64,000 bases of DNA from an uncultured Candidatus Saccharibacteria bacterium (lineage in GTDB: Bacteria > Patescibacteriota > Minisyncoccia > Phycocordibacterales > UBA918). The notes beneath the pieces are model-generated. The model saw only the letters and a list, made by a program, of their open reading frames with translations, searched no databases and was not told the origin of the DNA. The DNA lies in the NCBI GenBank assembly GCA_964601615.1, contig CAZRNZ010000001.1:71658-135657 (forward strand), in the 5' to 3' direction. Below are positions 9,556 to 60,306 of this stretch, piece after piece (positions within the stretch are counted from its first letter, which is position 1; each line of letters begins with the position of its first letter). The position numbers and the translations under genes are program-made.

Positions 9556-9592
9556 ACAAAACAGGCGCGCCCGAAGGGCGCGCCTGTTTTAT
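9556..9592. terminator. bidirectional intrinsic terminator AAAACAGGCGCGCCC-GAA-GGGCGCGCCTGTTTT (GAA-triloop hairpin family)
   Basis: 11-bp GC arms, GAA loop, A4/T4 flanks. Lies between convergent fmt and hpf. Confidence 0.8.
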
Positions 9593-16194: not shown

Positions 16195-17604
16195 TTATTG
16201 CTTACTTAGTACGCTCTGTCTTGTTGCTGGACCAAATCTACCGTTTGCTGGCGATATACCATTGGCAATCTGATATTTTGCTACTGCTTGGCGTGTTTTT
16301 TCTGCAAAATAGTCAGTTTCAAGTCCAATAGAGCCAGCTCCACTCTCGCCTACAATAAATCCATTTTGATTTAGGAATTTTTGTAATGCTAATACATCAG
16401 GACCAGTATCTCCAACGTAGAGATCTCTATAAAATACTGGCTGTTTTGATTGTAGTTCTTTAATTTGTTTTTGTAATTCAACAATTAATTCAACAATTTT
16501 TTTGGTAAGTTCTTCTTTTTCAGAAGAAGAAAGATTTTCAATATTTTTTGCATCATTTAATATTTCCTGAATTTTCTTCCCTAGGTCTGTTTGTTCAAGC
16601 TCTGTTTGTTTTGCTGGATTTCTTGATCCTCCAGAACTACCACTGCTTTGAGGTTTTTTACTTATATCTATTGTATAAGTAAAAGTATTTTCTGGAGAAG
16701 TCTGGTTCATATCGCCCCAAATATAATTGTCTTCTACCTGACTATTCTTTAATGCTAAGTAAAATGTTATTCCATTATCAGCAAGTATTTTTGTTATGTT
16801 TTGTCCAAAATCAATATTCCATTTTCCGTTTTGGTAACTTGCAGTAATTCCTTCATTAAGAAATGAGTCTTTATGCCCGGGTGTGTTGCCATAAACACCA
16901 TCTCCATTCACTGCATAAAGATGAAATTCTGGCAGGGTTCCTTCTAGAGAGTGGTCAACTTCTAAGGAATATAAATCATAATTAGTAAAGTTACCAGCGT
17001 CTATACTCAACTTAAAACTCTCATTGTGCTTTAAGTTTATTATCCCTGAAGATGGGTATATTGAAGGATTATTTAATATTGGATTTGAAAGGTTGAAGAC
17101 AAAAGTATTAGTGCTTGGTGTAGTTTTTTCAAGTATTCCGTTTGAATCGTAACCTAATATTTTAGTGTATGTATCTGGATTTGGAATGTTATCTTCTAAA
17201 TTAGCTATAAGTAAGCCAGCAGAAATTTGTACATCCCCCGTTATTCCTCTTAGTTTATTTCCAAAACTGATGGTCCAACCATCAGTATCTGAATATGCCA
17301 CACTACCACCAGCATCAACAAAAGAATTGTATGTAGGACCCCCAACAGCAAGTGGTGTGATTTCATTTCCCCATGCCCAGAAATCTAAATCAGTATCAGC
17401 AACATTCTTTGGGTCAATATCTACTTCTAGGCCAATGATTTTACCTGGAGTAAGAGTTATTCCAGAAGGTTTAATATTAATTGTAAGGTTGTCATTAACA
17501 GTATTGCTAGAAGTTACCTCTATTGATTGAGCGCTTGCTATAAAAGCAAACATAAATGAAAAACTCGCCACGCCAATTAAGGTAATAAATCTTCTGTAAA
17601 ACAT
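16195..17604 (-). CDS. secreted protein with a C-terminal peptidoglycan-binding (PG_binding_1-like) domain
   Basis: Signal peptide MFYRRFITLIGVASFSFMFAFIASA. Central coiled coil. C-terminus DTGPDVLALQKFLNQNGF...FAEKTRQAVAKYQIANGISPANGRFGPATR is typical of PG-binding domain 1. Confidence 0.6.
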   Translation of the reverse strand: MFYRRFITLIGVASFSFMFAFIASAQSIEVTSSNTVNDNLTINIKPSGITLTPGKIIGLEVDIDPKNVADTDLDFWAWGNEITPLAVGGPTYNSFVDAGGSVAYSDTDGWTISFGNKLRGITGDVQISAGLLIANLEDNIPNPDTYTKILGYDSNGILEKTTPSTNTFVFNLSNPILNNPSIYPSSGIINLKHNESFKLSIDAGNFTNYDLYSLEVDHSLEGTLPEFHLYAVNGDGVYGNTPGHKDSFLNEGITASYQNGKWNIDFGQNITKILADNGITFYLALKNSQVEDNYIWGDMNQTSPENTFTYTIDISKKPQSSGSSGGSRNPAKQTELEQTDLGKKIQEILNDAKNIENLSSSEKEELTKKIVELIVELQKQIKELQSKQPVFYRDLYVGDTGPDVLALQKFLNQNGFIVGESGAGSIGLETDYFAEKTRQAVAKYQIANGISPANGRFGPATRQSVLSKQ

Positions 17605-19738: not shown

Positions 19739-20905
19739 TTAGAAGAGTTTCCAAATATCTTGATCTTCTTCTCCATCGATCTTAAAGAAAACTATTCCCT
19801 TTAGATTATACTTTTCTGCCAAATTAATTTTATCTTCGGCAGATTTAGCATCTGAATACCAAACAACATTTACCTCAACTGGTACTTTTGCCAAGTTAGC
19901 AAATAGAAGTGCTTTAGCAGCTGCTTCAAAACCAGTTCTGGTATTATCTGGAGTTGGTAGTGCGTTTAAGATGCTGAAAATTGAATCTTTATGGAAGAAA
20001 CTATAGCTTGCTTCTCCAGCATTGTTGCGACCAATTTCTACATCATAATCATCTGCTAGTTCTAATACGTCAGGCAAGTTGATAGCGCTTACATTACGAT
20101 ATTCTTTGTACCACTCTGGTTCAACGGTGAGTTTCCACTGACGTCCATATGTTGGAATTCCAAGCATTATTTTTTCTGCAGGAATTTCCTTCAAGGTTTC
20201 TTTAATAACTTTTTCTACCCAGTCATTGTCTGCAACTGGAATATATGGCTCACCTTTTTTTAGGTCATTCAAAAGTAGGTCAGCACGTTGTTGGTCGTAG
20301 GCCATTATTTCTACAACGTCACAGTGTTTACCTATTTCTTTGTAGTCGTTTGCATACTCAATCACAGCAGGAACTGTTCTCCAACGACTTTCCGCAGGCA
20401 TTCTAGCTTCAACAGCACAGGTTAGTTTTTTACCATTTAGACGCGCTTTAAGTTCCTTTAAGAAAAGAGAGAAATGAACTTTTGTTGCAGCAAGCTTTGA
20501 TTCGTAGTCAATATTAATTCCATCAAATCCACCAGCCTCTACTGTTCTAGCAATAAGTTCGATATGCAAAGCTCTCCAAGTCGGGTTACTTAAAACTTGG
20601 TGGATTTCAGCTCCATTAGTCCATAAAATAGAAGGGATTACTTCTACATCATTTCTGTCGGCTTTTTTGATTAAATCTTGCCACTTTCCCTCAGTCAAAT
20701 CAGCTTTATCTACTGGAATTCCAGCAGAAGTGACTTCGTAAGCAAAAGGATAAATAATATCTAATTTATTAAGGTTTTTATCGGCACTTTCAGTACCCAT
20801 AGTGTCCTGCCACCAAGGAATCCAGCCACCTACTTCTAGAGCAGCGCTTGATGTGTTTGGTAATAGTAAGATAGTTAGCGCAAAAGCGACAAAAATATTT
20901 CTCAT
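19739..20905 (-). CDS. secreted glycoside hydrolase family 18-like (chitinase/peptidoglycan hydrolase-like) protein
   Basis: Signal peptide. GH18 catalytic block GFDGINIDYE, i.e. DxxDxDxE with the second Asp replaced by Asn and the catalytic Glu kept. Confidence 0.65.
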   Translation of the reverse strand: MRNIFVAFALTILLLPNTSSAALEVGGWIPWWQDTMGTESADKNLNKLDIIYPFAYEVTSAGIPVDKADLTEGKWQDLIKKADRNDVEVIPSILWTNGAEIHQVLSNPTWRALHIELIARTVEAGGFDGINIDYESKLAATKVHFSLFLKELKARLNGKKLTCAVEARMPAESRWRTVPAVIEYANDYKEIGKHCDVVEIMAYDQQRADLLLNDLKKGEPYIPVADNDWVEKVIKETLKEIPAEKIMLGIPTYGRQWKLTVEPEWYKEYRNVSAINLPDVLELADDYDVEIGRNNAGEASYSFFHKDSIFSILNALPTPDNTRTGFEAAAKALLFANLAKVPVEVNVVWYSDAKSAEDKINLAEKYNLKGIVFFKIDGEEDQDIWKLF

Positions 20906-20915
20906 ATATCATTTC

Positions 20916-20971
20916 TGACGCACAAAGGGGAGATTTCTTTCACTTGTGAAAGAAATCTCCCCTTTGTGCGT
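20916..20971. promoter_or_regulatory. 56-nt perfect palindrome (27-bp arms) 11 nt upstream of the GH18 start codon, between divergent GH18 and SLT genes
   Basis: GACGCACAAAGGGGAGATTTCTTTCAC-TT-GTGAAAGAAATCTCCCCTTTGTGCGTC; arms are exact reverse complements. Confidence 0.6.
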
Positions 20972-21031
20972 CTAAAGTCTGGGAGGCTCAAATTAGCCAT
21001 ATTTTGGCTCTAAATCAAACGGAGTAGCACA

Positions 21032-21397
21032 TTGAAGTTGAATAAAATATGCGTTCTATTGGGGTTGGTCGTATCTTTTTCGACCATCGCCACTACAACA
21101 CATGCCGGACCTGTTGAAAAAGAAGTGCGGCAATATTTCGCTGATGTTCCGATTATGGCCACAATTGCTGGCTGTGAATCTCGTTTTCGTCAGTTTGACG
21201 AAAACGGTCGGGTTTTGAAAAACCCAAATTCCAGCGCTAGTGGTGTGATGCAGATTATGTCGTCGATTCATAAGCGAGAAGCTGCTCGACTGGGGTATGA
21301 TATCTATACCCTCGAGGGCAATCTTGCCTATGCTCGTCATCTTTATCGGAACGAAGGAACGCGCCCTTGGAATGCTTCACGGCATTGCTGGGGGTGA
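21032..21397 (+). CDS. small secreted lytic transglycosylase (SLT-domain-like)
   Basis: TTG start with an AACGGAG RBS 7 nt upstream. Signal peptide. Catalytic region TIAGCESRFRQ...SSASGVMQIM resembles the SLT E-S...GLMQ motif. Confidence 0.55.
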   Translation: MKLNKICVLLGLVVSFSTIATTTHAGPVEKEVRQYFADVPIMATIAGCESRFRQFDENGRVLKNPNSSASGVMQIMSSIHKREAARLGYDIYTLEGNLAYARHLYRNEGTRPWNASRHCWG

Positions 21398-22898: not shown

Positions 22899-22920
22899 TT
22901 TTTTATATGTGGTAAATAAA

Positions 22921-22950
22921 ATAAGGGCGCAGCAAAGCTGCGCCCTTATT
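22921..22950. terminator. terminator AAGGGCGCAGC-AAA-GCTGCGCCCTT downstream of fba (minus strand)
   Basis: GC hairpin with an AAA triloop and a T-run. Confidence 0.75.
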
Positions 22951-22965
22951 TTATCTCTCTACAAT

Positions 22966-23979: not shown

Positions 23980-23992
23980 GAGATAAGTATAT

Positions 23993-24027
23993 CAACACAA
24001 AGGGCGCCTTCGGCGCCCTTTGTGTTG
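23993..24027. terminator. hairpin CAACACAAAGGGCGCC-TTC-GGCGCCCTTTGTGTTG
   Basis: 16-bp stem between fba and the ABC permease gene. Confidence 0.65.
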
Positions 24028-24036
24028 ATATAAATA

Positions 24037-24799: not shown

Positions 24800-25537
24800 T
24801 TAGTTTTTCTGATTCTTAATTACTTCCAAATAAGTTTGCTCGACCGATTTCCCTTCTTTCATAAAGTCTTCTTTTGTACCTTCGGCTACAATTTTTCCAT
24901 TGTTAATAATCGCAATGTCGTTGCAAAGATATTGAATCTCTTCTAAGTAGTGAGAAGTAAGAATAATTGTTTTGCCACGCTCATTCATTTCTTTTAGATA
25001 CTGCCAAAGATCATGACGCTGTTCCACGTCTACTCCTGCAGTGGGTTCATCGAGAATTAGCAAATCTGGCGTGTGTACTAAGGCGCGACCAAGCATTGTG
25101 CGGCGTTTTAATCCACCAGAAAGTTTTTGGAATTTAACTTTACGATGATTTTCTAAATCAAAACGTTTTATTAGTTCGTCTATTCTCGTTAGTCTTTCTT
25201 CTTTAGGAATCCCGTAATAACCGCCCATGTAATTCATTAGGTCTTCTGGGGTTGAGAAAATATCAACGTTGTATTCCTGTGGAGAAAGTCCAACCTTTCT
25301 TCTAGCAAGTTTGTATTCTTTTACTACGTCTGTTCCATCAATTAAGATTTGTCCTGAGGTCGGTTGAGTAATTCCAGTAATACAATTGATGGTTGTTGAT
25401 TTTCCGGCGCCATTAGGTCCAAGTAAACCAAAAAAACTCCCCTTCGGAATTTTGAGTGAGATGTCATTTACGGCAGTTTTTCCTTCGTAAACTTTGGTTA
25501 GATTTTTTATCTCTAAAGCTAGTGTTGTTTCTGACAT
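24800..25537 (-). CDS. ABC transporter ATP-binding protein
   Basis: Walker A GPNGAGKST, signature LSGGLKRR, Walker B LLILDEPTAGVD. Confidence 0.85.
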   Translation of the reverse strand: MSETTLALEIKNLTKVYEGKTAVNDISLKIPKGSFFGLLGPNGAGKSTTINCITGITQPTSGQILIDGTDVVKEYKLARRKVGLSPQEYNVDIFSTPEDLMNYMGGYYGIPKEERLTRIDELIKRFDLENHRKVKFQKLSGGLKRRTMLGRALVHTPDLLILDEPTAGVDVEQRHDLWQYLKEMNERGKTIILTSHYLEEIQYLCNDIAIINNGKIVAEGTKEDFMKEGKSVEQTYLEVIKNQKN

Positions 25538-27397: not shown

Positions 27398-27420
27398 TTT
27401 ATTCACTTACGTAAGATAAA

Positions 27421-27456
27421 ACAAAAACCAGCGCCCTTCGGGCGCTGGTTTTTGTT
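27421..27456. terminator. terminator AAAAACCAGCGCCC-TTC-GGGCGCTGGTTTTTG
   Basis: Bidirectional, between convergent genes. Confidence 0.8.
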
Positions 27457-27472
27457 TTAATTATTTACTTGC

Positions 27473-35534: not shown

Positions 35535-35568
35535 GAAAAAGAGCGCCGGCGAAGCCGGCGCTCTTTTT
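35535..35568. terminator. bidirectional terminator AAAAAGAGCGCCGGC-GAA-GCCGGCGCTCTTTTT
   Basis: GCGAAGC-core hairpin with A5/T5 flanks. Confidence 0.8.
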
Positions 35569-40719: not shown

Positions 40720-40740
40720 GTTGGTTGAGGTTGTAAAATA

Positions 40741-40775
40741 AACAGCGCCGCCCAAAGGGCGGCGCTGTTTTATAA
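40741..40775. terminator. bidirectional terminator AAACAGCGCCGCCC-AAA-GGGCGGCGCTGTTTT
   Basis: 12-bp GC stem with A/T flanks. Confidence 0.8.
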
Positions 40776-40783
40776 AATCAATT

Positions 40784-42130
40784 TTAGTAACTCTTTAGTC
40801 GTCTAGCTTTTTCGTGCTGACGTATCTTCTCAAGAGCCTTAGCTTCAATTTGACGAATACGTTCACGAGTAACTCCAAATTCTGCACCAACTTCTTCAAG
40901 AGTGTGGTAAGTGCCATCAATCAATCCGTGACGCATCTCCAAAATCTTTCTTTCCTTTTCAGATAATGTGTCCAAGATTTCTAGAATTTGATCAGTTAAA
41001 ATACTGTGCGCAACTTCTTGATCTGGTGAAGTTATCTTGTCGTCGGCAATAAAGTCAGACAATCGTGAGCGATCATCATCATCACCAACTGGTAGCTCAA
41101 GAGAAATAGTGTCCTGACTGATTTTCTCAATCTGGTAAACCTTCTCAACTTCAACTCCCATCTCAGTAGCAATTTCCTCAGGCATTGGATCGCGACCTAA
41201 GTCTTGAGCTAGACGACGGCTAACTTGCTTGTACTTCGCCATAGTTTCCACCATGTGTACTGGAATACGAATAGTACGAGACTGGTCAGCTAGAGCACGA
41301 GTAATAGCTTGACGAATCCACCAAGTTGCGTAAGTAGAAAACTTAAATCCCTTAGTAAAGTCAAACTTATCTACAGCTTTGAATAGACCAAGGTTTCCTT
41401 CCTGAATAAGGTCAAGAAGAGTTAGGTCTGGTGAACGTCCAACATACTTCTTAGCAATAGAAACTACCAAGCGAAGGTTTGCTCGAGCTAGAAGGTTTCT
41501 AGCTTCGTCATCCCCATCGACAATTCTTTTAGCAAGCGTACGTTCTTCAAGTGCGCTAAGAAGTGGGTATTGTCCAATCTCGCGAAGGTACATTTGAATA
41601 GAATCGTAACCACTATCTTGACGACGATATGAATTTTTTTGAGCGATCATCTCATCGCTGTTGTCGCTAGAAAGAAGGCCACCATTTTGGAGAATATCCA
41701 CATTGGCAACACTAAATCTCTCGTATAAATCTTCTAGGAAATCAATATCCTTCTCAATCGTTGGGAAGAATTTTAAAATATCATCGTAAGTTACATAACC
41801 ACGATCTCTACCGATTTTTAGAATATCTTCAGCTTTATTGTTTCGGTCGATCTCAGCTTTCGTTAGCTTTTTAGGTTTTTTAGGAACCTCTTTTTTAACT
41901 GCTTTAGCCGGAGTTTTCTTAACTGCAGTTTTGCTAACTTTTTTGGTCGTGGTCTTTTGTGTAGCCTTCTTTGCTGTTTTCTTAACAACCTTCTTTGCTA
42001 CTTTTTTGGCAGGTGTTTTTTTTGATGCCGCAGTCTTCTTAGACGTTGTGGCCTTTTTTACTGCCTTCTTGGCGGTCTTTTTAACCGCTTTAGTTACCGT
42101 TTTTTTTGTCGCTTTTTTCTGCGCAACCAT
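40784..42130 (-). CDS. rpoD: RNA polymerase sigma-70 factor RpoD with a Lys/Ala-rich histone-H1-like N-terminal tail
   Basis: Region 2-4 motifs ([59 protein letters not shown]). The first 90 aa or so are [10 protein letters not shown]-type repeats. Confidence 0.9.
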
Positions 42131-44862: not shown

Positions 44863-44892
44863 GCTGGGGTTTATTTTTTAAGTAAACAAACA

Positions 44893-44926
44893 AAAAGAGG
44901 CGCGCCCTTTGGGCGCGCCTCTTTTT
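44893..44926. terminator. bidirectional terminator AAAAAGAGGCGCGCCC-TTT-GGGCGCGCCTCTTTTT
   Basis: Lies between the LDT-like gene and rpoC. Confidence 0.8.
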
Positions 44927-52772: not shown

Positions 52773-52812
52773 TTGATATAAACAAGAGTGGGCGGAACCG
52801 AAGGTTCCGCCC
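52773..52812. terminator. hairpin AGAGTGGGCGGAACC-GAA-GGTTCCGCCCACTCTTTT
   Basis: 15-bp arms with a GAA loop, between the KH gene and trmD. Confidence 0.7.
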
Positions 52813-52830
52813 ACTCTTTTATTCGACAAT

Positions 52831-55712: not shown

Positions 55713-55740
55713 GTCTTGGATAGAGGGATTTAAATAACAA

Positions 55741-55772
55741 AAGTGCGGCGCCTTCGGCGCCGCACTTTTGTT
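55741..55772. terminator. bidirectional terminator AAAGTGCGGCGCC-TTC-GGCGCCGCACTTTT
   Basis: 12-bp GC stem between rnr and smc. Confidence 0.8.
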
Positions 55773-55782
55773 ATTTAGAATT

Positions 55783-58555: not shown

Positions 58556-59248
58556 TTACCATCCCTTTTCCTCAATCGCATTTTCAGCAGCATCTTGTTC
58601 CGCTTCTTGCTTTGATCTTCCTTTACCGTCAGCAATCTTTTCATTCTTAAGAAAAACGCCAATCGTAAAAACTCTGTCGTGATCAGGTCCTTCTTGAGAG
58701 ATTAATTCATAAGAAGGAGTAACTGAAACCTTGTCTTGAGCTAATTCCTGAAAACGGCTTTTTGGATCTTGCCAAAGTTTTTTCTCAACAATTTTTTCAG
58801 TTTTATTGAAAAGTTGATTTGCAATAAAACCTTTTGCTGCCTCATAACCTTGGTCAATATAAATGGCGCCAATACAAGCCTCAAAAGCGTTGGCAAGAAT
58901 GTATTGCCTTGCTCGTCCAGTATCCTTGGCTTCACCTTTGGACATCAACATAAAATCATTGAGTCCAATTTTGGTGGCAGCATCAGATAAAGAAACTGTA
59001 TTTACCAGCGCTGCTCTAATAGCAGTAAGTTCTCCTTCTGGTTTTTCTGGGTATTTACTAAACAAGAAATCAGTAGCAACTAACTCCAAAACAGCATCGC
59101 CCAAAAACTCCAATCTTTCATTGTGTTCTTGGGTAGCTTCTCTGTGTTCATTCAAATAAGAACGATGTGTTACTGCAGACAATAAATGATTCTGATCACC
59201 AAAAGTAACACCAAGGATTTTTTCTAATCTGGGTAGATTTGTATCCAT
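58556..59248 (-). CDS. rnc: ribonuclease III
   Basis: Signature ERLEFLGDAVLELV plus a C-terminal dsRBD. Confidence 0.9.
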   Translation of the reverse strand: MDTNLPRLEKILGVTFGDQNHLLSAVTHRSYLNEHREATQEHNERLEFLGDAVLELVATDFLFSKYPEKPEGELTAIRAALVNTVSLSDAATKIGLNDFMLMSKGEAKDTGRARQYILANAFEACIGAIYIDQGYEAAKGFIANQLFNKTEKIVEKKLWQDPKSRFQELAQDKVSVTPSYELISQEGPDHDRVFTIGVFLKNEKIADGKGRSKQEAEQDAAENAIEEKGW

Positions 59249-60253: not shown

Positions 60254-60306
60254 ATATCATAACATATTAAAATAAACAAAACTCCCCAATTGGGGAGTTT
60301 TGTTAA

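Follow-up and report, generated by a model that had tools for sequence, protein, structure and literature searches.

We read the 56-bp perfect palindrome between two divergent genes for secreted cell-wall hydrolases of an uncultured CPR bacterium with a tiny genome as two identical ECF-type (group 4) promoters placed back to back, which would co-regulate both genes; judging from the sequence comparisons described below, we put the probability of this reading at about 0.75. The element lies in a 64-kb stretch of DNA, the whole of which was analysed and is called the window here. It has the form GACGCACAAAGGGGAGATTTCTTTCAC-TT-GTGAAAGAAATCTCCCCTTTGTGCGTC, with arms at 20917-20943 and 20946-20972 that are complementary at 27 of 27 positions around a TT centre. 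It is the longest perfect hairpin of the window and cannot be a chance arrangement. The first-pass annotation of this DNA had described a perfect palindrome with 27-bp arms and no mismatches, as found here; it had placed the element at 20916-20971, and the true span lies one base further to the right. Its distances were sound: the palindrome ends 11 nt before the start codon of the GH18-like gene (ATG at 20905), and the roughly 60 nt given for the SLT-like gene correspond to 59 nt between the other end and the TTG start at 21032. The features concerned are the following.

20917..20972, no strand: 56-bp perfect palindrome with 27-bp arms around TT, interpreted as a divergent pair of promoters standing back to back
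20917..20941, minus strand: predicted ECF-type promoter facing the GH18 gene (motif match; spacing shared by 61 of the 63 orthologous regions compared; 11-nt gap to the ATG free of an SD)
20948..20972, plus strand: predicted ECF-type promoter facing the transglycosylase gene, identical in sequence (motif match)
19739..20905, minus strand: secreted GH18-family glycoside hydrolase, YaaH-like, with a signal peptide and without an SD (Pfam PF00704, E = 1.5e-28)
20973..21031, plus strand: predicted 5'-UTR of the SLT-like gene, opening with the G-rich box TAAAGTCTGGGAGG that is kept in relatives
21032..21397, plus strand: SLT-like (lytic transglycosylase-like) secreted protein of 121 aa, starting at a TTG (weak Pfam SLT match; orthologues in the same divergent position)

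Each arm reads TGAAAGA-N15-CGTC. In the arm facing GH18, GAAAGA occupies 20941-20936 (TGAAAGA from 20942) and is followed by a 15-nt spacer (20935-20921) and CGTC (20920-20917); in the arm facing the transglycosylase gene, GAAAGA lies at 20948-20953, the spacer at 20954-20968 and CGTC at 20969-20972. On the promoter reading, both -35 boxes (TGAAAGA) would flank the centre and both -10 boxes (CGTC) would form the outer ends. The leftward promoter, with its CGTC 11 nt before the ATG, would yield a leaderless or near-leaderless mRNA for the secreted GH18 protein. Its transcription start is predicted to coincide with the ATG at 20905 (minus strand) or to lie no more than a few nt from it, which would account for the lack of an SD before this gene. 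The rightward promoter would serve the secreted SLT-like transglycosylase from a start at about 20979-20983; the resulting 5'-UTR would measure about 50 nt and contain an SD. GGAG is found at 21021-21024, 7 nt before the TTG. Both start positions are predictions from promoter geometry: an ECF promoter is expected to start transcription 6-10 nt downstream of its -10 box, and the 7-13 nt between CGTC and the ATG, together with the lack of an SD, agree with this. The palindrome would thus probably lie upstream of both transcription starts and hence be absent from either mRNA, and since the two promoters are identical, both cell-wall enzymes would be expected to answer to the same sigma factor.

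Flanking genes and gene starts in the window

The relatives of the GH18 protein belong to Candidatus Kaiserbacteria, Paceibacterota and Nomurabacteria (CPR/Patescibacteria); an exact look-up of the protein itself gave no record. The 121-aa protein matched Pfam SLT with E = 0.0017 and 18.4 bits, under the cutoff of 21.3, and a sequence search against solved structures at E <= 1 gave no match. Given the sub-threshold Pfam match, the label 'SLT-like', already used in the first-pass annotation, is acceptable and has been retained. An ATG at 21049 is out of frame with this gene.

The GC content of the window is about 38%. SD-like sequences precede 5 of its 53 genes, whereas 25 of the 53 have a TAnnnT box that ends 4-9 nt ahead of the start codon, with a peak at 6 nt, as compared with 11% of random positions. 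TTGACA-N7-TATAAT-N6-ATG at 25537 is an example of such a leaderless-type start. Because the box is frequent and SD-like sequences are rare among these 53 gene starts, leaderless mRNAs would largely be the norm in this genome. A GGGGAG sequence in the palindrome had been annotated as SD-like; the sequence is present, but with so few SD-like sequences before the genes of the window it is unlikely to act as an SD. A sigma-70-type leaderless promoter was also considered for GH18 and rejected, there being no TAnnnT box 4-9 nt before its ATG.

A G-rich box (TAGGnTTGGGAGG or GGGCGG) directly follows the transglycosylase-facing CGTC, at 20973-20990 in the window, where the 5' end of the mRNA is predicted. 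It was also seen at equivalent positions in loci L002, L004, L008, L056, L084, L087, L133 and L208, and no conserved start codon follows it in the window or in these relatives.

More than 20 other perfect hairpins of a single design are scattered through the window at gene ends, each made of an A-run, a GC-rich stem, a 3-nt loop and a T-run. Their loops are GAA, TTC, AAA or TTT, and their perfection and uniform 3-nt loop length are striking. Examples lie at 55731-55777, 23988-24032, 27417-27459, 22916-22954 and 44892-44926, and further ones at 52784-52818, 35536-35568, 9558-9590, 40740-40770 and 60275-60304. They are apparently bidirectional intrinsic terminators.

A two-block motif before hydrolase and ECF sigma genes

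GH18 loci (80) were gathered from species-representative genomes and their upstream regions were aligned on CGTC; extraction of these regions demanded CGTC and did not demand the -35 box. In all but two of the 63 GH18 upstream regions aligned (61 of 63), the distance from G(T/A)AAGA to CGTC was exactly 15 nt, or 16 nt if counted from TGAAAG; the 15-nt spacer carried no information content. The gap from CGTC to the ATG in these 63 loci was 9 nt in 37, 10 nt in 10, 11 nt in eight, 12 nt in five and 13 nt in three. A strict motif, G[TA]AAGA-N15-CGTC, matched 72 times in 475 kb from 81 Paceibacteria/Kaiserbacteria loci as compared with 1.6 times in shuffles, and 62 of the 72 matches fell in GH18 upstream regions, so that 62 of the 81 loci have the motif before GH18. 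Eight of the remaining 10 precede divergent or nearby secreted genes of the SLT-like or RlpA/DPBB-like kind (the RlpA-like gene product matched DPBB_1 with E = 6e-14), and no ORF of at least 60 aa follows the other two. These eight matches lie 43-70 nt before the SD-preceded start of transglycosylase-type genes. The motif facing an SLT-like or RlpA-like gene is carried by L001, L002, L004, L008, L009, L056, L070 and L072, and additionally by L084, L087, L133 and L208.

In most genomes GH18 has a single arm before it and another upstream neighbour than here, frequently one that is umuD-like, so that what is conserved is one arm and not the hairpin. L001 and L002 are syntenic with the window, their GH18 proteins being 77% and 74% identical to that of the window, and their homologous element stops 10 nt short of the GH18 ATG. 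It has kept its centre, TTTCTTTCA...TGAAAGAA, and its ends, GACG...CGTC, but differs in the middles. Within the window, the two palindrome arms are the only intergenic instances of the motif. GGAAAGA-N15-CGTC also occurs at 40930-40954 (minus strand) within the coding sequence of rpoD (40784-42130), where sigma region 4 is encoded, and this match is probably due to chance.

The motif was likewise found at sigma factor genes. A metagenome scan for back-to-back motif pairs returned 120 stretches, many of them chance matches. Among the CPR-like stretches, however, 11 loci had one motif 4-19 nt before a gene for an ECF sigma factor of about 175 aa, the ATG mostly falling 7-10 nt after CGTC. The approximately 175-aa proteins matched Pfam Sigma70_r2 and, at up to 93 bits, NCBIfam TIGR02937, with SigM and SigW models as the nearest. 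At E <= 1e-10 this sigma family comprises 2,412 members, from Paceibacterota, Nomurabacteria, Peregrinibacteria and Patescibacteria by their source names, and it is widespread in Paceibacterota. When sigma genes were picked by homology alone (L203, L204, L206 and L207), all four carried GTAAGA-N15-CGTC-N7-ATG. A second, divergent copy of the motif lay about 45 bp upstream in three of the four (L204, L206 and L207). The divergent gene encodes a secreted PKD/PG_binding_1 protein at three of these four loci, and ribosomal protein genes take its place in L207.

Autoregulated ECF sigma factors are classically recognized by a copy of the promoter motif before their own gene. The position of the motif before the sigma genes of these bacteria thus indicates ECF-style autoregulation. 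In L203-L207 the sigma gene, at 1501-2050 in each, is followed by a gene for a protein of 240-330 aa, which gave a weak DUF5667 match in one locus and is possibly an anti-sigma factor. The window also encodes, at 16195-17604 (minus strand), a secreted protein of 469 aa with PG_binding_1 at its C terminus; it belongs to the class of proteins found divergent from the ECF sigma genes of the relatives, and a motif scan of the window revealed no promoter motif upstream of its gene.

In L012 and L025 an ECF sigma homologue is encoded about 2 kb from GH18. Searches of the 64-kb window for such a gene were negative, whether by phmmer with the RpoD of the window or by tblastn with 11 CPR ECF sigma factors, which detected homologues in L012 and L025 only; ten mid-size ORFs of the window compared with Pfam likewise contained no ECF sigma factor. 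We infer that the sigma factor is encoded by this genome.

The predicted promoters resemble those recognized in Bacillus subtilis by sigma W, M, X and V, which have a -35 tgaAAC, a -10 CGTC or CGTA and spacers of 14-17 bp (PMC5758882). In both cases the promoter is bipartite with a rigid spacer (TGAAAG-N16-CGTC here) and an identical CGTC, it also precedes the sigma gene (here in related genomes), and the regulon concerns the cell envelope. The differences are that the -35 box here ends in AAG(A) rather than AAC, that the GH18 and sigma genes start 7-13 nt after CGTC and are predicted to be leaderless, and that the host is an uncultured lineage of Paceibacteria/Kaiserbacteria (CPR). Two aspects of the fit count against the promoter reading. 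The -10 box CGTC is exact, but the -35 box, TGAAAG(A) or GTAAGA, has G where the AAC of ECF promoters has C, and the 7-13 nt spread of the distance from CGTC to the ATG implies that some mRNAs would have a leader of a few nt. A sigma-28-type promoter has the pattern TAAA-N15-GCCGATAA, which is loosely similar to the motif; given the ECF autoregulation, this assignment is less likely. A LexA/SOS box, an idea suggested by the umuD-like neighbours, was rejected: the single-copy motif is neither palindromic nor a direct repeat, and it also precedes sigma genes.

A search of one literature library for CPR sigma factors, promoters and leaderless mRNAs yielded nothing relevant and no account of this regulon, and the putative ECF regulon and its promoter motif G(T/A)AAGA-N15-CGTC thus appear to be previously undescribed in CPR bacteria. 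Gene regulation in CPR/Patescibacteria is almost uncharted, as these organisms are uncultured and have few regulators. What had been a structural curiosity would become a concrete, testable regulon, with an autoregulated ECF sigma factor and a motif that can be recognized across Paceibacteria-type genomes. Its targets would be secreted peptidoglycan or glycan hydrolases (GH18, SLT-like and RlpA-like), which may serve to remodel the wall of the producing cell or to attack that of a host. With the motif, regulon members and leaderless starts could be predicted across thousands of metagenome-assembled genomes.

Symmetry of the two arms

The inverted arrangement of two promoters forces symmetry at the -35 and -10 boxes only, that is at about 12-13 of the 27 positions. 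The spacers of the two arms are nevertheless identical at 15 of 15 positions in the window, at 12 in L002 and L008, at 11 in L056 and L208 and at 8 in L087, whereas orthologous arms compared between genomes are alike at a mean of 7.4 spacer positions. Because these non-conserved spacers match within a genome more than between genomes, the arms of a pair evolve in concert. Identity between arms runs unbroken outward from the -35 box, and mismatches cluster beside the -10 box. The GH18-facing arm of the window has GTG beside CGTC, as does the transglycosylase-facing arm of L087, and L056 has CTG; this suggests that one arm was copied onto the other. Six metagenome matches with 15 of 15 complementary spacer positions (L102, L142, L164, L167, L176 and L178) were set aside as generic palindromes with no relation to the element, which the self-complementary search pattern had retrieved.

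Several close relatives keep both promoters and both genes and have no spacer symmetry, with 2 of 15 positions identical in L001, 3 in L210, 5 in L004 and L133 and 6 in L084. The two promoters of L005 and L009 lie tens of bp apart, and in the divergent motif pairs at sigma genes the spacers are unrelated and the gaps measure 4-50 bp. Since close relatives retain both promoters without the symmetry, the long hairpin appears to be dispensable.

If the arms are indeed promoters, the balance tilts slightly towards the perfect spacer symmetry being a by-product of replication template switching on the obligatory central hairpin: nucleated on the central palindrome, template switching would copy one arm over the other. 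Template switching is known to perfect, homogenize and extend the arms of inverted repeats (PMC7202029; PMC8794818; PMC13100816). In such quasipalindrome correction, imperfect repeats are perfected by arm copying, as reported for inverted repeats in yeast promoter regions (PMC7202029; PMC8794818; PMC13100816). Such copying yields arms that co-vary within a lineage without selection on pairing, as would be the case here; the copying event itself is deduced here from the arm identities within and between genomes. The palindrome would then be a clean natural case of promoter arms evolving in concert, with a bearing on perfect inverted repeats that arise without selection for a hairpin.

We favour template switching over a selected cruciform or operator. 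It is unlikely, if not remote, that the arms are promoters and that the full perfect palindrome has in addition been selected, whether as a cruciform that is extruded under the negative supercoiling of divergent transcription and shuts both promoters, as a symmetric site for a dimeric repressor or activator covering both -35 boxes and the spacers, or as a means of keeping two promoters exactly matched in strength. Spacer complementarity with lineage-specific sequence is seen in the window, L002, L208, L008 and L056 and partly in L087, and symmetry in five or six lineages, with arms more alike within than between genomes, could reflect selection instead of neutral homogenization. An extended core, GGATTTCTTTCA..TGAAAGAAATCC, has been kept across this clade, and the element is very stable as single-stranded DNA, with a fold of -31 kcal/mol (z = -12.4). 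The -35 boxes are moreover 6 bp apart, so that two polymerases must compete, and symmetric bidirectional promoters of E. coli are a described case of such competition (PMC12825309). The relatives in which both promoters and both genes persist but the spacers lack symmetry, including L001 with its 77% identical GH18, argue against selection of the whole palindrome, as do the unrelated spacers and variable gaps of the divergent pairs at sigma genes. A protein operator should keep its sequence, yet the palindrome spacers co-vary; the half-sites that are conserved coincide with the -35 and -10 boxes, which are also present in single copy in most genomes, and it is the extra symmetric positions that co-vary. 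No candidate regulator gene is linked to the palindrome. The first-pass annotation had proposed, at the DNA level, a cruciform or an operator for a dimeric regulator shared by the two hydrolase genes. A cis-regulatory element common to both genes is retained from that proposal; its nature, on our reading, is that of two ECF promoters and not primarily that of a dimeric operator.

One specific version of such selection is a DNA-structure switch in which negative supercoiling, built up between the two promoters by divergent transcription, extrudes the 56-bp cruciform and thereby destroys both -35/-10 geometries. We consider this improbable. If true, the switch would make the expression of two potentially self-lytic or host-attacking hydrolases of a CPR episymbiont self-limiting or bistable.

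As two divergent ECF promoters, the element is comparable to the bidirectional promoters of other bacteria, in which pseudo-symmetric DNA supports two-way transcription (predicted here) and in which polymerase bound one way should exclude the other (bioRxiv 10.1101/2020.01.31.928960; PMC12825309). It is unlike bidirectional sigma-70 promoters in that complete ECF promoters would stand -35 to -35, with predicted starts about 75 bp apart and 56 bp of perfect symmetry. In the bidirectional sigma-70 promoters studied, the symmetry axis reportedly falls within -10 elements that overlap, and about 18 bp separate the starts.

RNA-level and terminator readings, and variation at the locus

The first-pass annotation had placed the palindrome in the 5'-UTR of GH18, where an RNA hairpin would control translation or attenuation or be processed by RNase III. 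Such a hairpin would be extremely stable (fold in RNA context, -62.6 kcal/mol; z = -7.7), and a gene for RNase III lies in the window at 58556-59248. Transcription through the palindrome could in principle start from a sigma-70-like TTGATT-N17-TAATTT at about 21018-20990, a candidate found by eye and not reported by the consensus scan. Most GH18 orthologues are one-armed, however, and can form no hairpin, yet their arm is kept as -35 and -10 boxes at a fixed distance from the ATG. The promoters of L001, L004, L133 and L210 are both retained with no long hairpin. The 11-nt gap before the ATG has neither an SD nor a standby site, in a genome that rarely uses SD sequences, and the geometry sets the start at or beside the ATG, which would leave the palindrome untranscribed. 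On these grounds we consider the RNA-level reading very improbable. A search of Rfam with the palindrome gave nothing at gathering score; in E-value mode it gave only sub-threshold eukaryotic miRNA-precursor models, which were matched because the palindrome is a generic hairpin. A leader peptide was also examined, with a GTG opening the GH18-proximal arm, 13 codons and a TGA overlapping the GH18 ATG, and was rejected, L002 having CTG and no equivalent frame.

Least probable of all is a bidirectional terminator or insulator, or a REP- or MITE-like mobile palindrome that landed between the genes: the window is rich in perfect hairpins, but those differ in design and stand at gene ends, the palindrome has no second copy in the window, and a homologous element occupies the orthologous position in many genomes, where its divergence tracks that of the host genes. 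The search for further copies of either arm, which the first-pass annotation had proposed, covered the 64 kb with up to three mismatches and found none (0 of 100 shuffles gave a match); conservation at the orthologous position argues against mobility. The palindrome resembles the Rho-independent terminators of the window in being a perfect intergenic hairpin. It differs from them in its 27-bp stem, in having GC at the base and AT at the loop, and in its position between two divergent gene starts. An intrinsic terminator was rejected outright, as no T-run follows either arm and the consensus scan did not report one there.

In many Paceibacteria, GH18 lies directly after the umuD-like (S24 peptidase) gene, whose TAA stop falls inside the GTAAGA -35 box. 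Examples of the umuD-like/GH18 cluster are L034 (1976-2461 and 4196-5452) and L014 (2028-2465), and others are L037, L027 and L046. A Y-family polymerase-like gene is found nearby in L034, so that the cell-wall hydrolase gene sits within an SOS-like cluster.

At the divergent position, some genomes have a small secreted gene of the SLT-like kind and others one of the RlpA/DPBB-like kind, and the two kinds of protein share a near-identical signal peptide (..CVLLG..ATTTHA). The genes compared with 21032-21397 of the window were L008 2004-2372, L056 1996-2358, L009 1962-2426 and that of L084. It looks as if the catalytic domain may have been swapped behind a conserved promoter, 5'-UTR and signal peptide.
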